DNA of 64,000 bases, from NCBI RefSeq assembly GCF_056746865.1, contig NZ_CM163382.1; one strand, 5' to 3'. The notes under the pieces were generated by a model. That model saw only the letters and a list, made by a program, of their open reading frames with translations, did not search any database and was not told the DNA's origin. This document shows, in pieces, positions 21,511-55,512 of this stretch. Position numbers and translations under genes: made by a program. Position 1 is the first letter of the stretch. Each line of letters opens with the position of its first letter.

Positions 21511-23050
<1,540 letters not shown>

Positions 23051-29440: not shown

Positions 29441-29552
<112 letters not shown>

Positions 29553-29676: not shown

Positions 29677-30657
29677 ATGTCTGAACTTATTGCAACTGCC
29701 GCTTCCAGCATTAACGCTTTTACTCTGGCAAAGCGTGTCGCCGCATTTAACGTGCCGGTGCTCATTCAGGGCGAAACCGGTGCGGGCAAAGAGTGCGTGG
29801 CGAAATATATTCACTCCGTAGCCTTTGGTGAAAACGCGCCCTATATCGGCGTGAACTGCGCGGCGATCCCGGAAAATATGCTGGAAGCGACCTTATTTGG
29901 CTACGACAAAGGCGCATTTACCGGCGCAATTGCCAGCGTACCAGGCAAAATGGAACTGGCGAATAACGGCACCTTATTGCTCGATGAAATTGGCGATATG
30001 CCGCTGGCGCTACAGGCCAAAATATTACGCGTATTGCAGGAACAGCAGGTTGAGCGATTAGGCAGTAACCGACAAATTAAACTCAATTTTCGCCTGATTG
30101 CCTGCACCAATAAAAACCTTGAGCAGGAAGTCGCCGCCGGGCGTTTTCGTGAAGATCTCTATTATCGTCTGGCGGTTATTCCTATTACCATGCCGCCGCT
30201 GCGTGAACGCCTGAACGATATTATCCCGCTGGCAGAGTCATTTATTAAAAAATACTCCACAGTGCTGGTGAAAAATATCACCCTTTCAGAATCTACTCGC
30301 CGGGCGCTGCTCAATTACCGCTGGCCCGGCAACGTGCGCCAGCTGGAGAACGCCATTCAGCGTGGAATGATTTTAAATCGCGACGGCGTGATTTTCCCGG
30401 ATGCCTTAGGCCTGCCGGAAATAGACGTTGCCGATCACAGTGAACTGCAATGGCCTGTTCAGCCCTCCGTATCTGTTGCGGAAACCAGCGATTTAGGCCA
30501 GGCCGGACGTAGCGCCCAGTATCAATATATCGCCGACCTGATGCGTAAATATCAGGGCAACCGCAGCAAAATTGCCGACCTGTTAGGCATTACCCCGCGC
30601 GCACTGCGCTATCGACTGGCCTCCATGCGCAAGCAAGGTATCGAAGTTTTCTCCTGA
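29677..30657 (+). CDS. lafK: Sigma-54-dependent transcriptional activator LafK (AAA+ plus HTH, no receiver domain)
   Basis: 326-aa ORF beginning in the sigma-54 interaction domain (Walker A GETGAGKE, GAFTGA) with a C-terminal Fis-type HTH. Confidence 0.85.
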   Translation: MSELIATAASSINAFTLAKRVAAFNVPVLIQGETGAGKECVAKYIHSVAFGENAPYIGVNCAAIPENMLEATLFGYDKGAFTGAIASVPGKMELANNGTLLLDEIGDMPLALQAKILRVLQEQQVERLGSNRQIKLNFRLIACTNKNLEQEVAAGRFREDLYYRLAVIPITMPPLRERLNDIIPLAESFIKKYSTVLVKNITLSESTRRALLNYRWPGNVRQLENAIQRGMILNRDGVIFPDALGLPEIDVADHSELQWPVQPSVSVAETSDLGQAGRSAQYQYIADLMRKYQGNRSKIADLLGITPRALRYRLASMRKQGIEVFS

Positions 30658-36594: not shown

Positions 36595-36698
36595 ATGTTT
36601 AAAAAATCGCGTTTTTTCGACATATCCCCAAAACATGTCGATGGCATAAACGTATTCCAACGACATGTTTAAAAATCGCATTTTATCGACATATCCCT
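36595..36698. repeat. Two copies of a ~35-bp direct repeat between convergent genes
   Basis: atgtttaaaaaatcgcgttttttcgacatatcccc (36595..36629) and atgtttaaaaatcgcattttatcgacatatccc (36665..36698). Confidence 0.6.
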
Positions 36699-39154
36699 GA
36701 CGATTCCTTGCCCGCCAGCGCCTCCACAATCACCATCGCCGCCCGTTCTCCCGCCTTGCCATCCATAAACGCATCGCAATAGTGATGACGAATCTCCTTA
36801 AGCCGCGCCAGCAACGCACCCCAGTCAAACGCCTCTGACAACAAATAACGCAGTTCCGCAACATCATGAGCCACCGGCAATATTTCGCGGATTTGCTGGT
36901 CGGCGCTTTCGGGCGTGGAGTAACTTTTCTCACCGTCGAGCAACGCTGCCATTTCCGGAAAGTCGAGCAGGATTACCCGCTTATCAACGTGGATAGCATC
37001 GAAAATAAAGCCGCTGTTATCGGTCAGCACGTAATCGGCCTTTGCCAGTAGCGCCAGCGTGTGGTGGACGGAGTCGGTGCGCTGTTTTAAGTGCCTGCGC
37101 GCCAGGGCCAGCGATGCAGCTTCTTCCGGGCGCGAGCAGGTGCCGTGGTGCAGTTTGCAAATCAGATTCACATTGCCACTTAAGCGCCCCAATTTTTCTG
37201 CCCAGTGGGGCAGGGAGCTTAATGCGCCAAACGTGGGGGCGTAGAGCACCGTAGGTTTACGGGAATCGGGTTGAATATTTTCTGGCAGAATGCGGTCAAA
37301 CGTGCCGTTATGCCAGGCGTCGAAGCGCGGGTTGCCGACTGCTTTTGCATTGCCGAAATGCGCCAGCGCCCGCTGGCTGTAGTGGCTGTAACACAAAATG
37401 CGTTGATAAAAACGGTTCCAGTCGGCGTGGTTCCACGTCTCTTTGGCTAAGCCATACATGGCGCGAACGTTCACCGCTGCCAGGCCATTGAGCGCGGGCG
37501 TGTGGTAGGGGCTGACCAGGCATTTCACCCGCTGACCGTGTGCCTGCATTTCAGATAAGCGCATTCCTTTGAGCTGCGGATCGTCGATGCTTTTTAGCGT
37601 CTCCAGCATTTCATCCAGAAACGGTTTAAACACGCGGTCGTTGATCACCAGCGTGCAGCCTTGCCCCTGCGCCTGTAGGGCGGTGATGATTGGGCGGTAG
37701 AGCGCGTAATGGAAAGAAGTTTCCATAAAAAAGCCGATGGTGTCGGCGATGGGTAACGCGGATGGCTTTGTGATAGCAGGTAACTTATTGAAATAGTGAG
37801 CAATATTATCAGTCATTTTTTTCTCGATATCGCTAAAGCCTGGTCGCTGATAACTAAGGCTCGGGTAACAGGCCAGCCATTTGTCGGCGCGTAGCAGCGG
37901 CTGCCAGCCGTCTTCCAGCGAATGCTCATCGTTGCTCATCTGCTGCGCCAGTTGCGGGTAGTAGCGGCGGTTCACCAGATAAGCGCATACCTTGCGGCAG
38001 TCCCGCGCGTGCACCAGCCCCGGCAAACTTTTTAGCATCGTTCCCTGCGAAATTTCGCCGCCGAGGATCATCACCTGCCAGGGAATTTTCGCCAGGCTCG
38101 CCAGCAGCGTGTTCAGCACCTGAATATGTTTCTCCTGCTTGAGAATAACCGCGTCATCTTCCAGCAGCAGATAGTTTTGCCAGCCGTGCTGTTGCGCCAG
38201 GCGCAGCGCCTGCAAGTGCGACTGACGTCGTCCCCGTTGGCCGTTTTGATCTTCACTGGCGGCAAGGCGGGTGATCTTCTCAGGTGGAATATGCAGCAAT
38301 GCCAGTTCTTCACGGATCTGTTGTAAGCGATCCGGGCGTTTATCCAGATTCACAACAACTACCTGATCGATCGTCTGATGGTTGATCCCTTGGTGATGAG
38401 TGGCGTTATGTAGACTCAGATAAGCATTGCGCAGCAGCGGATCGCTGACGATATCTGTAAGCGCCGCGTTTACAGGCGTGCTGGCCCCGAGAATAAAGTC
38501 TTTATCAAAGGTGTTGTGGCTGTGCGAGATACACAGAATCGTGCGCTCGCCGGGCAGTTGTAGCGGGTTAACGCTGAAATTGTCGGTGAAACTTTTCTCT
38601 TCGCCTAAATTGCAATCATCGTCGTAACGGTGCTTTTTCAGGTAGTTACGGTGATAGCAAAAGGTGCCGTTGAGGATGTTATGTGGGCCAAAGCTGCGGC
38701 TTTGAAAGATGCGATTGATGTGGCTGTACCAGATGGGGATCTGGTCGGAGCCGGAGATGAGCGCCCGGTGTTTTTGCATCTTGGCGATGGTCCAGGAGAT
38801 TTTATCTGCCGGGTAGTAGTCGTCATCGTCCATGCAGAGGATGTATTCGCCGCGCGCCAGTTCGTTGAGCATATTGCGTTTTTTGCCCAGCGGCAGTTTT
38901 TCCGGGTGATGAATATAGCGGATGTTAAAGGCTTCCGGCGTGCCATTGGTCAGGCGGTCGATGATGTGTTGATGGCTTTGCGGGGAATCGTCGAGGATGA
39001 TGAGTTCGCGGCGGTCTGCCGGGTAGTCCTGATAGCGGTACATATAAAGCAGGTACGGCAGGAATGCGCTGCGGTTCCAGGTTGGCGTGACGACGCTGAT
39101 GAACGGTTTTTCGCGCTGGGTGGCGAGTGTTTTGATAATGGTTGGTGTTGGCAT
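36683..39154 (-). CDS. Multidomain transferase: GT2 + GT25-like + TagF-like CDP-glycerol glycerophosphotransferase
   Basis: ORF 36683..39226; start taken at MPTPTIIKTL (39154) because the upstream extension translates a GC-rich repeat. N-term GT2 (VVTPTWNR…ILDDSP…MDDDDYY), middle GT25-like (VVVNLDKRPDRL), C-term TagF-like (VLYAPTFG…KLHHG…LTDNSGFIFDA). Confidence 0.75.
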   Translation of the reverse strand: MPTPTIIKTLATQREKPFISVVTPTWNRSAFLPYLLYMYRYQDYPADRRELIILDDSPQSHQHIIDRLTNGTPEAFNIRYIHHPEKLPLGKKRNMLNELARGEYILCMDDDDYYPADKISWTIAKMQKHRALISGSDQIPIWYSHINRIFQSRSFGPHNILNGTFCYHRNYLKKHRYDDDCNLGEEKSFTDNFSVNPLQLPGERTILCISHSHNTFDKDFILGASTPVNAALTDIVSDPLLRNAYLSLHNATHHQGINHQTIDQVVVVNLDKRPDRLQQIREELALLHIPPEKITRLAASEDQNGQRGRRQSHLQALRLAQQHGWQNYLLLEDDAVILKQEKHIQVLNTLLASLAKIPWQVMILGGEISQGTMLKSLPGLVHARDCRKVCAYLVNRRYYPQLAQQMSNDEHSLEDGWQPLLRADKWLACYPSLSYQRPGFSDIEKKMTDNIAHYFNKLPAITKPSALPIADTIGFFMETSFHYALYRPIITALQAQGQGCTLVINDRVFKPFLDEMLETLKSIDDPQLKGMRLSEMQAHGQRVKCLVSPYHTPALNGLAAVNVRAMYGLAKETWNHADWNRFYQRILCYSHYSQRALAHFGNAKAVGNPRFDAWHNGTFDRILPENIQPDSRKPTVLYAPTFGALSSLPHWAEKLGRLSGNVNLICKLHHGTCSRPEEAASLALARRHLKQRTDSVHHTLALLAKADYVLTDNSGFIFDAIHVDKRVILLDFPEMAALLDGEKSYSTPESADQQIREILPVAHDVAELRYLLSEAFDWGALLARLKEIRHHYCDAFMDGKAGERAAMVIVEALAGKESSGICR

Positions 39155-39332: not shown

Positions 39333-40262
39333 TCACGTCAGCAGCGAAAACGCTGAAAGCAGCGGCTCTGCCGCACATAACGACTGAATTTGCTGGCGAA
39401 TCGACGCAGCATTTTCACTCTCTCGCCAGCGTTCAAACACCGCAAAAAGGGCGAAAATATCCTCCTGTCGCAGCGGTGAACCATCCAGCGTCCATAAACT
39501 GATTAACGTGCGGATAAGATAAAAATCGCACACCAGCGGGCAATAATCTGCTCCGTCTGCCTGCCCAATCACCTCATGGTAAACGCGGTAAATCAGCCAG
39601 TTACGCATCATCCAGGGCGCGGTAGCAAAATGCTGTTGCCAGGTGGTTTGCCACTGTGCCTGAAGCTGATGTTGTAACAGGGCTTCGCTGTTGGCGTCAT
39701 GTAGCGCCAGCAAAGGCATCTGCAACGGCAGCGAAGTTTTGCGCGGGCTTTCCGGCAAAATCGACCAGTCAAACGCACAACTGCCGAGCAGCGTCATCAA
39801 CTGGCGCGCCAGTTGTGGCACGGGCGGCAACTGGGCGAACTGTGCCTGTAGCGTGCCTTTTTTCGCATGATCGGCCAGCGCCTGCGGCAGCGTCGTCAAA
39901 CGGGCAAGAATATCTCCGTCTCTGCCCGGCATTTTACTGGCGCGGGAGAGTAAAATCCCGATGGCATACAGGGAAAGCTCTGGGGTTAAATCGGGGAGCG
40001 TGAGGGTACTCAAAATCACCTGGTTTACTATCGCATCGCGCGCGGAAAGCTCTGCGGCATTTTCTTCCACAGGACGGTAGGTGAGCTGTAAATCAAAGGC
40101 CCTGGCATCGTTGAGTACCGCTTCGCAGCTGGCTGGCTCTGTCAGCATCAGGCTCTGGCGAATCTCGTTTTTCCACACCTTGCGGATGTACAAAGGCGAA
40201 TCGGGATATTGCGTCATAAAATTGCGCACGTATTCCGGTTCGTAACATTCAATAAAACTCAT
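39333..40262 (-). CDS. Hypothetical protein in the lfgA–lfgM–lfgN transcription unit
   Basis: ORF 39333..40301; probable start MSFIECYEPEYV at 40262 preceded by GGAAG. No recognisable motif. Confidence 0.45.
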   Translation of the reverse strand: MSFIECYEPEYVRNFMTQYPDSPLYIRKVWKNEIRQSLMLTEPASCEAVLNDARAFDLQLTYRPVEENAAELSARDAIVNQVILSTLTLPDLTPELSLYAIGILLSRASKMPGRDGDILARLTTLPQALADHAKKGTLQAQFAQLPPVPQLARQLMTLLGSCAFDWSILPESPRKTSLPLQMPLLALHDANSEALLQHQLQAQWQTTWQQHFATAPWMMRNWLIYRVYHEVIGQADGADYCPLVCDFYLIRTLISLWTLDGSPLRQEDIFALFAVFERWRESENAASIRQQIQSLCAAEPLLSAFSLLT

Positions 40263-40388
40263 AGGTGGCTTCCAGTCTTTATTACTTTGCGGAATATGCA
40301 ATAAGCGTGCCGGGAATTTTTATAATCAAAAACAAAGGATTGTGAATCAGGCGGAAAATCCGTTTCCGCTATGGGGAAGGTGTTCGCG

Positions 40389-40829: not shown

Positions 40830-41108
40830 TTAGTTCTGGAAAAAACTCAGCATATCGCTGGCTAACTGTTCGGTGTCCACTTGCAGGCTGCCGGAGGCCA
40901 GCATCGCCTGCATTTGCGCCACTTTATCGCTGTCGATATCGCTCTCTTGCTGGTCGTTCAGTGTTTGCTGGGCAGACTGCAATCCCGCCTGGGTAATGTC
41001 GTCGGCGCTTAGCGTCGTGGCGGTGGTCGCCGTGCTTTTGCGCGACTGGCTGGAGCCTGCCGTTGTGGCTGTCGGGCGATTGCCTGGCATAGTCGGGGTG
41101 ATTTTCAT
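40830..41108 (-). CDS. lfgM: Anti-sigma-28 factor FlgM homolog
   Basis: 92-aa ORF, Ser/Thr-rich N-term and FlgM-like C-terminal helix region. Confidence 0.75.
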   Translation of the reverse strand: MKITPTMPGNRPTATTAGSSQSRKSTATTATTLSADDITQAGLQSAQQTLNDQQESDIDSDKVAQMQAMLASGSLQVDTEQLASDMLSFFQN

Positions 41109-41188
41109 CGCAACCTCGTCTCGGTATTTAGGTGGGTTACTCCAGTAAAGCGGTTAACAGGCGGCAAAACTTTAATCGCCTGCGCAAA

Positions 41189-41926
41189 TTACTCCGCGCT
41201 TACCGTCGTCACCACGCCGCTTTCCGCCACCATCGCGCTGATGACCCGCTGGCTGCTGGCGTTACGCACTTTCACCATCTCGCCTTTGCGACCATTTTTC
41301 AGCGCCACGCCGGGCATCGAGGCGGTGATCCCCGCGCTCTGGTAAACAATCATCACCGGCTGATCGCGTTCGACCAGCACTGGCGAAACCAGCTCTTCTT
41401 TGGTGATGGGCCTGCCCGGTTGCAGCGCGTGTTTACTGCTGAAACCAATCGCGTCATCGGGATCCATCAACACATTGCGGCGCTGGGCGCTGACGTTGTA
41501 GGGCTTCAACTCCACATCATTTGCCGTGAGCGGCGTGTCGCGGGCAACCAGTGACTTCGCCATTACCACCGGCACCAGAACATCCGGGCGCACCGCCACG
41601 TTCATCTGCCAGCTTTGCGGGCAACTGACGGTGAAGTTCATCCGGTTGAGGGTGATTTCCGCAGGCGAAGTGAGCGTGACGCCGGGTGTAGTCGCACAGG
41701 GGGCGGCGGTCGCAATCTGCGAGGGAATATAGACCTTAAAGGTGTAGCGATAGTCATGCCAGCGCCGCTGTTGCGCCAGCGATTCAATTTCCTGGCTCGC
41801 GGCATTTAGCACCTGGGCGTTGACTTGTTCCCGCGCGCTGTGTTGCACGGGGTGGACGGCGGCGTAGCCCGGTAAGGCCAGCACCAGGAGGAAGAACAAC
41901 TTCCGCCTGCAAAATTGAAAACTCAT
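41189..41926 (-). CDS. lfgA: Flagellar P-ring assembly chaperone FlgA homolog
   Basis: 245-aa ORF with signal peptide and FlgA-like C-terminal region. Confidence 0.8.
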   Translation of the reverse strand: MSFQFCRRKLFFLLVLALPGYAAVHPVQHSAREQVNAQVLNAASQEIESLAQQRRWHDYRYTFKVYIPSQIATAAPCATTPGVTLTSPAEITLNRMNFTVSCPQSWQMNVAVRPDVLVPVVMAKSLVARDTPLTANDVELKPYNVSAQRRNVLMDPDDAIGFSSKHALQPGRPITKEELVSPVLVERDQPVMIVYQSAGITASMPGVALKNGRKGEMVKVRNASSQRVISAMVAESGVVTTVSAE

Positions 41927-41955
41927 AAACCCTTTCTCATCAGTGACTTAAAAAA

Positions 41956-41971
41956 TGGCACGGCGATTGCT
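41956..41971 (+). promoter_or_regulatory. Sigma-54 (-24/-12) promoter upstream of lfgB
   Basis: TGGCAC GGCGA TTGCT, exact TGGCAC-N5-TTGC match, about 37 bp upstream of the lfgB ATG. Confidence 0.7.
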
Positions 41972-42007
41972 TAGCGTATGCGGATTGAAGCAGGAGTGAC
42001 GCAGGAA

Positions 42008-42343
42008 ATGGGGATCAGTTTTCAACAGGCATTGGGAGTGCATCCGCAGGCAGTGAAGTTACGTCTTGAGAGGACCGAGCTACTGACTGCGAATCTGGCG
42101 AACGTCGATACGCCAAATTTCAAGGCTAAAGATATTGATTTTGCCAGGGAGATGCAACGGGCAAATAACGCGGCGGTGGATGTCCAGTACCGCGTACCGA
42201 TGCAGCCGTCAGAAGATGGCAACACCGTGGAACTGAACAGCGAACAGGCACGGTTTTCACAAAATAGTATGGATTATCAAAGCAGTCTGACCTTTCTGAA
42301 TCTGCAAATCAGCGGCATCAGAGAGGGCATTGAAGGGAAATAA
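42008..42343 (+). CDS. lfgB: Flagellar rod protein FlgB homolog
   Basis: ORF 41978..42343; start placed at MGISFQQ… (42008) because the sigma-54 promoter predicts transcription starting near 41983. Confidence 0.75.
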   Translation: MGISFQQALGVHPQAVKLRLERTELLTANLANVDTPNFKAKDIDFAREMQRANNAAVDVQYRVPMQPSEDGNTVELNSEQARFSQNSMDYQSSLTFLNLQISGIREGIEGK

Positions 42344-42345
42344 GC

Positions 42346-42777
42346 ATGTCATTTACTGATATCTATCAGATTTCCGGCTCGGCGATGACGGCGCAAACCA
42401 TTCGTCTGAATACCGTTGCCAGTAACCTGGCGAATGCCAATGCACCTGCCGGCAGCGAGGCGCAGGCGTATAAAGCGCGCAGCCCGGTGTTTGCGGCGGT
42501 GTATCACCACAGCTTGCTGGCGGGAACGCATCGTCATGCCATTGATGGTGCCAGCGTGCAGGTGCAGGACGTGCTGCAAACCGGCGGGGCGGTGAAACGC
42601 TATGAACCGCATTCGCCGCTGGCGGATGCTAACGGGGATGTCTGGTATCCCGACGTCAACGTGGTGGAACAGATGGCGGACATGATGTCGGCCTCGCGCG
42701 ATTTTGAAACCAACGTCGATGTGCTCAACAACGTGAAAAGTATGCAGCAAAGCCTGCTGAAACTGGGAGAAGCCTGA
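42346..42777 (+). CDS. lfgC: Flagellar rod protein FlgC homolog
   Basis: 143-aa ORF with conserved rod N-terminal motif (…TIRLNTVASNLANANA…). Confidence 0.9.
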   Translation: MSFTDIYQISGSAMTAQTIRLNTVASNLANANAPAGSEAQAYKARSPVFAAVYHHSLLAGTHRHAIDGASVQVQDVLQTGGAVKRYEPHSPLADANGDVWYPDVNVVEQMADMMSASRDFETNVDVLNNVKSMQQSLLKLGEA

Positions 42778-43490
42778 TGAATACCCTGGCGCTGAATGCG
42801 CAATCGCCGCAGCCGACCGCCACGGCGGAAAGCAACAACGTGGCAGCCAGCGACACGACAAGCAGCAGCGATAGCTCGCCCGTCGATACCTTCCTGACGC
42901 TGTTTGTCGCTGAGATCCAAAACCAGGACCCGACCGACCCGACTGACGCCACCGAATATATCGACCAGCTTTCTTCGATGGCGCAGGTGGCGATGATGGA
43001 AGAGATGAGCGTGCAGGCCAACACCAACGCGGTGCTGATGAGCAACATTCAGGTGATGGCGCTCGGCAACCTGGTGGGTGACGACATTATGGTGCAGACC
43101 ACCGCCTTGCAGGTGAGCGACCAGACCATTAATGGTCGCGCCACGCTTGACGACGCCTGTACCACCGCCGATCTCCACTTTACCGATGCCGCAGGCGATG
43201 ACTACACCGTCTCGCTGATCCCGCAGGGCAGTTCGTCCGTCGGGCCAGGCCAGGTCGATTTCTCGATTAATCCGGCGGATTACGGTATCCCGCCCGGTGA
43301 TTACGACGTCTCGGTGGTGACCAACACCGGGGAAGAAGAGGTGCCGATTGAAGTTTCCGGCGAAGTGGAAGATGTACGCATCCCGCTCGACGGCGGCTCT
43401 CCGGTGCTCAATGTTGCAGGCGTGGGCGAAGTGCCGTTCACCATGATTAGCCAGTTTGGCGTACCCGATGCCGACAGTGATGTGGCGTGA
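42777..43490 (+). CDS. lfgD: Flagellar hook cap protein FlgD homolog
   Basis: 237-aa ORF; FlgD-like N-terminal region and position. Confidence 0.8.
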   Translation: MNTLALNAQSPQPTATAESNNVAASDTTSSSDSSPVDTFLTLFVAEIQNQDPTDPTDATEYIDQLSSMAQVAMMEEMSVQANTNAVLMSNIQVMALGNLVGDDIMVQTTALQVSDQTINGRATLDDACTTADLHFTDAAGDDYTVSLIPQGSSSVGPGQVDFSINPADYGIPPGDYDVSVVTNTGEEEVPIEVSGEVEDVRIPLDGGSPVLNVAGVGEVPFTMISQFGVPDADSDVA

Positions 43491-43499
43491 TGTCCGGTG

Positions 43500-43597
43500 C
43501 CAAATTGCCTGATGCGCTTCGCTTATCAGGCCTACATGAAACTGCATGGTTTTGTAGGCCGGATAAGGCGTTCACGCCGCATCCGGCAAAACAACGG
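43500..43597. repeat. REP elements between lfgD and lfgE
   Basis: gcctgatgcg…cttatcaggcctaca … gtaggccggataaggcgttcacgccgcatccggca. Confidence 0.65.
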
Positions 43598-45579: not shown

Positions 45580-45718
<139 letters not shown>

Positions 45719-45751
45719 CCGCGGCCGAAAAACAACACGGAATTTACCACC

Positions 45752-46537
45752 ATGAACGCAGCACTATGGATCAGCAAAACCGGCCTCTCGGCGCAGGATG
45801 CTGAAATGAGCGCGATTGCCAACAACATCGCCAACGTTAACACCACCGGCTTCAAGCGTGACCGGGTGATGTTTCAGGATCTGTTCTACCAGACCCAGGA
45901 AGCGCCGGGCGCGATGCTCGATCAGAACAACATCATGCCGACCGGGCTGCAATTCGGTAGCGGCGTGCGCATTGTCGGCACCCAGAAAACCTTCACCGAA
46001 GGCAACGTCGAAACCACCGACAACGCCATGAATGTCGCCATTATGGGGCAGGGGTTTTTGCAGGTGCAAAAGGCCAACGGCGATATCGCCTATACCCGCG
46101 ACGGCAACTTGCAGGTGAACGCCGACGGCGTACTGACCAACTCGCAGGGCTTGCCGTTGCAGCCGGAAATCGACGTTCCGGCGGGGGCGACCAACGTCGC
46201 GTTTGGCGAGGACGGCACGGTGACGGCGATCTTACCCGGCGACAGCGATGTGACCGAGTTAGGGCAACTGACACTGGTGAACTTCGCCAACCCAGCGGGG
46301 CTTTCTGCCGAGGGCGACAACCTGTATCTGGAAACCGCCGCCAGCGGTCAGCCGACCGAAGGTGTGCCGGGCGAAGATGGGCTTGGCACCTTGCAGGACA
46401 ACGCGCTCGAAGGCTCGAACGTGGATATCGTCAACGAAATGGTGGCGATGATTACGGTGCAACGCGCGTACGAGATGAACGCCAAAATGGTGTCGGCAGC
46501 GGACGATATGTTGCAGTACATCAGCCAGACGCTGTAA
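45752..46537 (+). CDS. lfgG: Flagellar distal rod protein FlgG homolog
   Basis: Start MNAALWISKTGLSAQD… within ORF 45626..46537 (the upstream extension translates REP sequence); 261 aa. Confidence 0.9.
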   Translation: MNAALWISKTGLSAQDAEMSAIANNIANVNTTGFKRDRVMFQDLFYQTQEAPGAMLDQNNIMPTGLQFGSGVRIVGTQKTFTEGNVETTDNAMNVAIMGQGFLQVQKANGDIAYTRDGNLQVNADGVLTNSQGLPLQPEIDVPAGATNVAFGEDGTVTAILPGDSDVTELGQLTLVNFANPAGLSAEGDNLYLETAASGQPTEGVPGEDGLGTLQDNALEGSNVDIVNEMVAMITVQRAYEMNAKMVSAADDMLQYISQTL

Positions 46538-52385: not shown

Positions 52386-52730
52386 ATGATGTGGGACGTC
52401 GAGACAACGGAGACTTTCGACAACTGGTTTGATGCCCAGACTGTTGCGCTGAAAGAAGATTTACTTGCTGCAATGCTGATTCTTGCTGAGTATGGCCCAC
52501 AGTTGGGCAGACCCTTTGCGGATACGGTTAATGATTCACAGTTTTCAAATATGAAAGAATTACGCGTCCAACATCAGGGAAACCCGGTACGTGCTTTTTT
52601 TGCTTTCGATCCTGCGCGCCGTGGCATTGTATTATGTGCGGGTGATAAAACGGGGTTAAATGAGAAAAAGTTTTATCGCGATATGATCAAGCTCGCTGAT
52701 TCTGAATACCGTAAGCATCTGAAAAAGTAA
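52386..52730 (+). CDS. Type II toxin, RelE/ParE superfamily (HigB-like)
   Basis: 114-aa ORF MMWDVETTETFDNWFDAQ…GNPVRAFFAFDPARRGIVLCAGDKTG…, the toxin class usually encoded upstream of an HTH antitoxin. Confidence 0.7.
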   Translation: MMWDVETTETFDNWFDAQTVALKEDLLAAMLILAEYGPQLGRPFADTVNDSQFSNMKELRVQHQGNPVRAFFAFDPARRGIVLCAGDKTGLNEKKFYRDMIKLADSEYRKHLKK

Positions 52731-52739
52731 GGAACGATA

Positions 52740-53039
52740 ATGGCTACTCTAAAAGAACTGATGGCAAAGCAAAGCCCTGAAAGCCAGGTGCGTATTGCGG
52801 CAAAAGTTGAGGAAATGCGCCAGACCATCGCCTTGCATCAGCTGAGAGAAGAACTCAATATTTCGCAAACGGAAATGGCGGCAGCGATGGGCATTAAGCA
52901 ACCGACTCTTGCAAAAATGGAGCAGGCAGATAACGATCCTCGGTTGTCTACGCTAAAACGCTATGTTGCGGCTTTAGGTGGGGAATTGAGTATCGACGTT
53001 AAACTGCCGAATGGTAAGAGAATTGCATTTCAGATTTAA
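52740..53039 (+). CDS. HTH (XRE-family) antitoxin, HigA-like
   Basis: 99-aa ORF 10 bp after the toxin; HTH segment LNISQTEMAAAMGIKQPTLAKME. Confidence 0.7.
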   Translation: MATLKELMAKQSPESQVRIAAKVEEMRQTIALHQLREELNISQTEMAAAMGIKQPTLAKMEQADNDPRLSTLKRYVAALGGELSIDVKLPNGKRIAFQI

Positions 53040-55339: not shown

Positions 55340-55382
55340 TGGCGGACTTGCCGATGCGGCGTAAACGCCTTATCCGGCCACG

Positions 55383-55432
55383 AACAACACCGCCTGCGGG
55401 CGGTGTTGTGCTTTCAGCGGCAGGCTTTTTTC
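55383..55432 (+). terminator. Putative terminator after lafA
   Basis: Hairpin aacaacaccgcc tgc gggcggtgttgt, then a second GC stem with a T-run. Confidence 0.45.
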
Positions 55433-55496
55433 CGCCAGAACGGAAACGTCATTTCCGCCTGTTTTTCAATCTATTGATTATTCACATAAAAAATAT

Positions 55497-55512
55497 TGGC
55501 ACGCCTTTTGCC
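55497..55512 (+). promoter_or_regulatory. Sigma-54 (-24/-12) promoter upstream of lafB (fliD)
   Basis: TGGCAC GCCTT TTGCC, exact TGGCAC-N5-TTGC match, about 32 bp upstream of the lafB ATG. Confidence 0.7.

Follow-up and report, generated by a model that had tools for sequence, protein, structure and literature searches.

The 64-kb stretch of Escherichia coli chromosome analysed here (the window) contains a complete Flag-2 (lateral flagellar) gene cluster, a locus reportedly first described by Ren et al. in 2005. The element under study, a predicted sigma-54 promoter on the plus strand at 41956..41971, lies in the short region between the divergently transcribed genes lfgA and lfgB. Bases 41000-43500 of the window are 100% identical to E. 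coli strain 118UI, and the RefSeq annotation, made with the Prokaryotic Genome Annotation Pipeline (PGAP), was read from the identical 118UI region (locus coordinate + 20999 = window coordinate). The region is present in 1279 of 5426 complete E. coli genomes. According to this annotation, the lfg, lfi, and laf genes, lafK among them, stand in the canonical Flag-2 order: lfhAB and lfiRQPNM (minus strand) come first, followed by lafK and lfiEFGHIJ, variable region 1, lfgNMA (minus strand), then lfgBCDEFGHIJKL, variable region 2, and lafA and lafB through to motAB and dinB. RefSeq names lfgA, lfgB, and lfgC as flgA, flgB, and flgC, and so on; the architecture of the cluster has been described before (PMC6993521). 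Of the two genes flanking the element, lfgA (41189..41926, minus strand) encodes a P-ring chaperone, as judged from annotation and Pfam, and lfgB (42008..42343, plus strand), the first gene of lfgBCDEFGHIJKL, encodes the lateral FlgB rod protein of 111 amino acids (aa; Pfam Flg_bb_rod). These two, lfgC, lafK, and the other genes of the cluster are intact open reading frames (ORFs) with ordinary annotations. The rpoN gene, which E. coli carries, is not within the window.

A sigma-54 consensus element precedes lfgB

The element reads TGGCAC-GGCGA-TTGCT (TGGCACGGCGATTGCT) and matches the sigma-54 consensus TGGCAC-N5-TTGCW without a single mismatch; the extended form TGGCACG is also matched. Its −24 GG (41957-41958) and −12 GC (41969-41970) dinucleotides are exactly 10 bp apart. 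It is oriented toward lfgB, with 36 nt between its last base (41971) and the ATG at 42008-42010, and the divergent region shared with lfgA measures 81 bp to this ATG, or 51 bp to an alternative ATG further upstream (41978). An earlier description of this DNA, made from its letters (the sequence-only reading), had claimed a perfect −24/−12 element about 37 bp before the lfgB start, inside a divergent region of 50–80 bp, and direct reading and counting bore it out.

No other exact match to TGGCAC-N5-TTGCW exists on either strand of the window, and with a position weight matrix (PWM) derived from orthologous promoters, the lfgB site was again the top match (21.5 bits). Exact matches occurred by chance with a mean of 0.07 per shuffled window, and 6 of 100 shuffles contained at least one, which makes the single window merely suggestive, not decisive. 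The PWM score of the real site was equalled by one mononucleotide shuffle. A sigma-70-like promoter, be it for lfgB or for lfgA, was not found between 41700 and 42200, nor was a sigma-28 site of FliA consensus found near lfgA, lfgM, or lafA.

Starting from 14 aligned LfgB homologs, one genome per species was scanned, which yielded 80 lfgB loci. They stem from Enterobacterales (Escherichia, Pseudocitrobacter, Citrobacter, Enterobacter, Lelliottia, Kluyvera, Cedecea, Buttiauxella, Mangrovibacter, Yersinia, Serratia, Rahnella, Pantoea, Erwinia, Izhakiella, Tatumella, and Rosenbergiella) and from Pseudomonas flexibilis, Serpens, a Lysobacteraceae metagenome-assembled genome (MAG), and Methylomonas. 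The best match to TGGCAY-N5-TTGCW was scored in the 200 nt upstream of each lfgB. It had two mismatches or fewer in 80 of 80 loci (38 exact, 34 with one, and 8 with two, that is, at most one in 72), compared with 5.5% of 2000 control windows of 200 nt from the same loci; one mismatch or fewer was found in 0.3% of these controls and an exact match in none. The −24 hexamer was TGGCAC in 41 loci, TGGCAT in 37, and GGGCAC and TGGTAT in one each, the central GC being kept in all but the last. The −12 box was TTGCT in 61 loci and conformed to NTGC in all 80. When the loci were aligned on the motif, conservation collapsed beyond TGGCAcG.taaTTGCTtta, and the distance between the element and the lfgB start ranged from 29 to 81 nt. 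As both the flanks and the length of the leader vary, the constraint acts on the −24/−12 element itself, which amounts to a phylogenetic footprint, and its retention in every locus while the flanks diverge argues against a chance match.

A homolog search seeded with P. flexibilis LfgB and aimed at Vibrio returned Pseudomonas-type proteins only; the Vibrio loci were reached with a published 19-mer on metagenome contigs (four irrelevant matches and one Vibrio match), followed by exact protein look-up. In Vibrio parahaemolyticus and V. harveyi, the orthologous region carries TGGCACGTATCTTGT together with an inverted repeat, described below, that starts 56 bp upstream. For V. parahaemolyticus, Gu et al. 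(2022; PMC9817140) reported ATGGCACGTATCTTGTTTG upstream of flgB2 (VPA0264), to which RpoN binds in electrophoretic mobility shift assays, and reduced expression of flgB2C2D2 in an rpoN mutant (quantitative reverse transcription PCR); the polar flgB site of the same organism reads TTGGCACGCTAATTGCTTT (PMC9817140). The flgB2 (lfgB) promoter, which belongs to the LafK/RpoN class 2, is orthologous to the one studied here and lies in the same lfgA-lfgB divergent region. Its −24/−12 element (ATGGCACGTATCTTGT) is located ∼37 nt before the start codon, and the same GGAA-N7-TTCC repeat lies upstream; it differs in its −12 box, which is TTGT and not TTGC, and in the offset of the repeat, which is 56 instead of 66 bp. 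With the element kept in all 80 loci and RpoN binding to the Vibrio orthologue, the view of the sequence-only reading that this is a real sigma-54 promoter stands on firm ground.

The lfgB site had already been predicted for E. coli PCN033 (Liu et al, 2015; PMC4578781), in a paper that neither gives its position nor analyses conservation, and that names no enhancer motif, no third promoter, and no argument for a start codon. An experimental test of the lfgB promoter in E. coli was not found in the literature. Within this species, the −24 box is polymorphic: among the 1279 locus-bearing genomes, ∼618 have TGGCAC, 535 have TGGCAT, and the rest have other variants. Of the TGGCAC genomes, 351 match the 38-mer exactly, and the two common 38-mer alleles (TGGCAC and TGGCAT) together account for ∼1150 of the 1279. 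In four other aligned E. coli alleles, the GG, the GC, and the half-sites of the repeat are kept, save for an A-to-G exchange in the −24 box of RMDEC465. That allele combines TGGCGC with a TAA stop at codon 7 of lfgB, which suggests decay of the lfgB operon in this strain.

Start codon and leader of lfgB

In the standard geometry of sigma-54 promoters, the GG is located at −24/−25 and the GC at −12/−13. With the GC at 41969-41970, transcription should start near 41982 (predicted range 41981..41983, plus strand, ∼12 nt past the −12 GC); the alternative ATG at 41978 would thus lie 5′ of the predicted transcription start. PGAP places the lfgB start at 42008, and the frame of ATG 41978 is closed in Citrobacter. 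The N-termini of 14 of 14 aligned LfgB homologs coincide with this position, a Met or Val preceding (G/S)I(S/T)F (MGISF or MSISF, for example). Together, these observations support ATG 42008 as the true start of lfgB, which is the one of the two candidates that the sequence-only reading had preferred. The predicted leader of ∼26 nt contains a Shine-Dalgarno sequence, AGGAG (41992..41996, plus strand), and the region around it (GCAGGAGTGACG) is kept in Escherichia, Pseudocitrobacter, and Citrobacter. The leader is predicted to be unstructured (folding compared with shuffles, z = +1.3), and no Rfam family matched it.

LafK and related activators

A sigma-54 activator is indeed encoded in the locus, as had been claimed from the letters: lafK (29677..30657, plus strand) encodes an enhancer-binding protein of 326 aa, recognized by Pfam domains and by motifs in its translation. 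The Pfam domains are Sigma54_activat (PF00158; residues 6-170, E = 1.7e-64), AAA_lid_14 (PF25601; 176-244), and HTH_8 (PF02954; 282-315); the motifs are Walker A (GETGAGKE), Walker B (LLLDEIGD), and the GAFTGA loop. LafK, therefore, has what defines a bacterial enhancer-binding protein (bEBP) of the NtrC family, an AAA+ domain with GAFTGA and a C-terminal Fis-type helix-turn-helix (HTH). Neither an N-terminal receiver nor a FleQ domain is present; the AAA+ domain begins directly at the N-terminus, which, considering the size of the protein, makes it a minimal activator without sensory domain. Vibrio LafK is longer than the 326-aa protein of E. coli, and Plesiomonas is reported to lack lafK (PMC11242183).

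The polar class II promoters served by FleQ, FlrA, and FlaK in Pseudomonas and Vibrio are likewise part of a sigma-54 hierarchy, with TGGCAC-N5-TTGC at flgB-type rod/hook operons. However, these activators have the N-terminal FleQ domain that E. coli LafK lacks. They also recognize other motifs and respond to cyclic di-GMP, and some of their promoters are bound downstream of the start, whereas the repeat at lfgB keeps a strict upstream offset. In its architecture—AAA+ plus HTH, no N-terminal sensory domain—LafK resembles what is generally known of PspF. At pspA of E. coli, this AAA+/HTH-only activator serves a sigma-54 promoter from upstream activating sequences (UAS) within ∼80-130 bp, with a site for integration host factor (IHF) between. 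PspF and LafK belong to different bEBP lineages with different DNA motifs, and PspF is controlled by the anti-activator PspA; we know of no PspA-like anti-activator partner for LafK. Lateral flagellar genes of V. parahaemolyticus are described as LafK- and RpoN-dependent in reviews (PMC3930126 and PMC4481668), and the features of the window support the notion that LafK and sigma-54 drive the lfgB rod/hook operon of E. coli Flag-2.

An inverted repeat accompanies the sigma-54 sites

At 41890..41904, the inverted repeat GGAAG-AACAA-CTTCC (GGAA-N7-TTCC) overlaps the 5′ end of lfgA, inside codons 8-12; it extends on one side to 41909 as TTCCGCCTG. Counted from the T of TGGCAC, the repeat begins 66 nt further upstream (the distance between these two points is hereafter called offset), and its centre lies at about −85 from the predicted transcription start. 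It was singled out as a candidate LafK UAS by its recurrence, both in the window and in other species.

In the window, three PWM sites scored far above the rest, and each of them is correctly oriented toward a Flag-2 gene that begins 31-36 nt downstream. Beside the lfgB promoter, these are the lafB promoter (TGGCACGCCTTTTGCC, 55497..55512, plus strand, 20.0 bits), 31 nt upstream of the fliD-like gene lafB (start 55544), and a third sigma-54–like promoter (CGGCACGCTTATTGCA, 40297..40312, minus strand, 17.8 bits). The latter is located in variable region 1 (VR1), where it is followed after 34 nt by a hypothetical gene (39333-40262, minus strand) and a gene for a GT2 glycosyltransferase (36683-39154, minus strand). 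The DNA upstream of all three sites shares GGAA-N7-TTCCGCCTG, the copies at lafB (GGAAACGTCATTTCC, 55442-55456) and in VR1 (GGAAACGGATTTTCC, 40353-40367) each having an offset of 55. In fact, the window contains exactly three copies of GGAA-N7-TTCCGCC, one at each of these sites, as opposed to an expectation of 0.01. The composite of the third promoter and its repeat is also found downstream of lfgN in loci of Escherichia, Pseudocitrobacter, Citrobacter, and Phytobacter. Earlier work reports the lafB site in E. coli PCN033 (PMC4578781) and predicts one at the lafB gene of V. parahaemolyticus (PMC9817140); for the third promoter, no mention was found in the accessible papers, and the cargo of VR1 has been discussed as machinery for flagellin modification (PMC6993521). 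Near the lafB repeat, at 55419-55436, there is also a half-site–like copy (GGCAGGCTTTTTTCCGCC).

Across species, 77 of the 80 lfgB promoters were preceded by GGAA-N7-TTC(C/A). The offset was 66-70 bp in 65 loci, 63 bp in one, 76-77 bp in eight (Rosenbergiella and Tatumella), and 122-123 bp in three (P. flexibilis, Serpens, and the Lysobacteraceae MAG). An offset of 55-56 bp, as at lafB and the variable-region promoter, also applies to the Vibrio lfgB promoter (GGAAGTTTGGTTTCC), and offsets of ∼56, 67, and 77 bp differ from one another by about one helical turn. The three loci without GGAA-N7-TTCC, the only such ones among the 80, all belong to Methylomonas. These do have a sigma-54 element upstream of lfgB, and another conserved block, TTTTTGACRCC, ∼60 nt upstream, which is perhaps the site of a different activator.

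The half-sites of the repeat are invariant and the N7 spacer is free, with R and Y at positions 5 and 11; E. coli alleles alter the LfgA residues encoded in the spacer, but the half-sites are retained. Furthermore, the distance between repeat and promoter is constant, whereas that between repeat and lfgA start shifts between genera. Invariant half-sites, a free spacer, and an offset tied to the promoter are the signature of a site for a dimeric protein; LafK, through its HTH_8, is the obvious candidate protein, and GGAA-N7-TTCC is a candidate LafK enhancer. A link of LafK to any DNA motif was not found in the searchable literature, the key older papers being outside its reach.

Over the 80 loci, the repeat is enriched 16-fold (164 sites versus ∼10 expected). 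Copies within lfgD, lfgE, and lfgG (including one at 46165-46179 of the window, in lfgG) were set aside because conserved codons for GEExVP, GSIxS, and PEIDVP explain them. A terminator or RNA hairpin was rejected for the promoter-proximal copies: their half-sites do not vary, covariation is absent, and the copy at lfgB falls within the coding sequence of lfgA. The VR1 copy has no T-run, and the lafB copy is followed by CCTGTTTTT.

The lfgA side, the spacer, and other features of the cluster

On the opposite side of the divergent region, 29 nt separate the −24 box from the lfgA ATG. A sigma-54–like match on the minus strand (41761-41746) was dismissed as lfgA promoter because it lies inside the gene. 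An ATG is conserved at a distance of 13-16 nt from the −24 box. Citrobacter has it in the frame of lfgA, and many genera apparently use it as the start of this gene; the E. coli copy (ATGAGAAAGGGTTTATGA, 41927-41945) is out of frame, which implies that lfgA of E. coli starts at the second ATG (41926).

Between repeat and promoter, 5 nt before the −24 box, lies an A/T-rich element (CATCAGTGACTTA, 41938..41950, plus strand) that matches 7/9 of the IHF core WATCAANNNNTTR and was assigned with low confidence. At the same position, a block A.TCA..A..TTAAAA is conserved across genera; in many genera, an IHF-like WWTCA....TTA block precedes the −24 box by 5-6 nt, with scores of 8-9/9 in many relatives. 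The lafB spacer contains a perfect 9/9 core (CAATCTATTGATT, ∼55467-55479) on the opposite strand, 17 nt before the −24 box. In the Vibrio spacer, a perfect core (TAAGTCATTGATA) was noticed by eye, the IHF scan having covered the non-Vibrio loci. These observations hint, weakly, at bending of the lfgB spacer by IHF.

Variable region 2 contains a gene for a RelE/ParE toxin and one for an HTH antitoxin (52389-53039), situated between a hypothetical gene adjacent to lfgL and a lafZ-like regulator gene. Directly outside lfhA, an IS3-family element, ISEc31, is located at 21519-22732. Palindromic elements of the repetitive extragenic palindromic (REP) type (GCCGGATGCGGCGTAAACGCCTTATCCGGCC-like) occur in several intergenic gaps (43557-43592, 29455-29490, 55380-55410, and 45580-45750), one of which gave a sub-threshold match to Rfam naRNA4.

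Discussion

The data are best accounted for if the lfgBCDEFGHIJKL rod/hook operon is transcribed from a sigma-54 (RpoN) promoter at 41956-41971 that LafK activates from the upstream repeat, a reading to which we assign a probability of roughly 0.85. RpoN-holoenzyme would bind the −24 GG and −12 GC as a closed complex; for the Vibrio orthologue, binding of RpoN is published. LafK, encoded 12 kb upstream and with the domains of a minimal, PspF-like AAA+ activator, would occupy GGAA-N7-TTCC as a dimer-of-hexamer unit, ∼85 bp upstream of the start and within the 5′ part of lfgA. From there, it would reach sigma-54 across the A/T-rich spacer, which may or may not be bent by IHF, this part of the scheme being weak. 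ATP hydrolysis would then open the promoter, transcription would begin near 41982, and the ∼26-nt leader with its AGGAG would direct translation from ATG 42008. The same enhancer-promoter module would drive lafB and, in this lineage, the glycosyltransferase genes of the variable region.

That the consensus arose by chance in A/T-rich intergenic DNA, lfgB being transcribed from a sigma-70 or sigma-28 promoter instead, is conceivable from the window, considering how the shuffles behaved, both in exact matches and in PWM score. Comparison between species effectively refutes this possibility: the element persists in 80/80 loci amid diverged flanks, its Vibrio orthologue binds RpoN, and neither a sigma-70–like nor a FliA-consensus promoter was found that could take its place. 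We consider it extremely improbable. Decay is a different matter. Flag-2 has been deleted or frameshifted in many Escherichia (PMC6993521 and PMC4578781), and RMDEC465 pairs a degraded −24 box with a nonsense codon in lfgB; the promoter could thus be a relic in a cluster that is transcriptionally silent or decaying, without present function in this strain. However, the cluster genes in the window are intact ORFs, the GG, the GC, and the half-sites are kept in the aligned E. coli alleles, and two alleles prevail among the genomes with the locus. In addition, the same sites occur in PCN033, a flagellated and motile strain, albeit one that also has Flag-1 (PMC4578781). On balance, a mere relic appears unlikely.

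A stronger challenge concerns the repeat rather than the promoter. The sigma-54 promoter could be genuine and GGAA-N7-TTCC still not be the LafK enhancer, but an operator (for LafZ or another protein), an element of lfgA, or an RNA or DNA hairpin, with LafK acting from another site or from solution. The location of the repeat within the lfgA coding sequence is compatible with this view, as is the lack of a motif for LafK in the searchable literature, and so are copies found in other places. In 27 non-Escherichia loci, GGAA-N7-TTCC is present in the lfgA-lfgM gap, ∼60 nt before the lfgM ATG and ∼860-1010 nt upstream of lfgB, with no −24/−12 element nearby; at the equivalent place of the window (41160-41180, minus strand), there is a sigma-28 −35–like sequence (TAAAGTTT, 41174-41167) within a degenerate palindrome, GGCGA...GCCGCC. 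In eight Erwiniaceae loci, a GC-rich GGGCGGAAG-N5-CTTCCGCCC forms an 8-9-bp stem between the lfgG stop and the lfgH start, ∼4190-4310 nt after the lfgB start; being only ∼20 nt before the lfgH ATG, it is too close for an enhancer and may be a terminator or an RNA hairpin, and some copies of the repeat may act as RNA stems. On the other hand, half-sites that do not vary around a spacer that does, with no covariation in the stem, resemble a protein site and not an RNA stem; the repeat keeps a constant distance from the −24 box and a varying one from the lfgA start; the copies at the lafB and variable-region promoters are noncoding; and LafK possesses a DNA-binding domain, HTH_8. We therefore regard a function other than LafK enhancer as a real but minority possibility.

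Several of these observations, and some others, weigh against the reading of a sigma-54 promoter activated by LafK from the repeat. Copies of the repeat without a sigma-54 promoter nearby mean that the role of the binding factor may be broader or different, the offset of 122-123 bp is out of helical phase with the others, and what ties LafK to the repeat is co-occurrence. The 7/9 score of the IHF-like core at lfgB is no better than that of shuffles (P = 0.56). TGGCAT accounts for ∼42% of the locus-bearing E. coli genomes; the “perfect” TGGCAC is thus one of two common alleles, and perfection itself is not under selection. The experimental support comes from the Vibrio orthologue, the E. coli site being known from its sequence. 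Finally, the Flag-2 system of Escherichia is often called cryptic or inactive (PMC6993521), and the promoter may consequently be silent under laboratory conditions. A more comprehensive proposal is as follows: GGAA-N7-TTCC, in the form RGCGGAAR-N5-YTTCC, would be the LafK site in a phased module (offsets of ∼56, 67, or 77 bp) that extends from Vibrio to Escherichia and governs the rod/hook operon, lafB, and the horizontally acquired flagellin-glycosylation cargo of VR1, with the lfgM sites reflecting a second, FleQ-like role independent of sigma-54. We see the chances of this proposal as evenly balanced.

The lfgB sigma-54 promoter is already in the literature as a prediction; modest new leads come from the inverted repeat and the third promoter. 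The LafK/sigma-54 hierarchy of the Vibrio type is retained in E. coli Flag-2, and the start of lfgB is fixed at 42008; the exact coordinates are of practical use for finding out whether extraintestinal pathogenic E. coli express Flag-2. As to the glycosyltransferase cargo genes, the third promoter points to their co-regulation with the assembly of flagella. The conserved palindrome, finally, provides a concrete and mutable candidate for the LafK site, which makes recognition of DNA by LafK directly testable.

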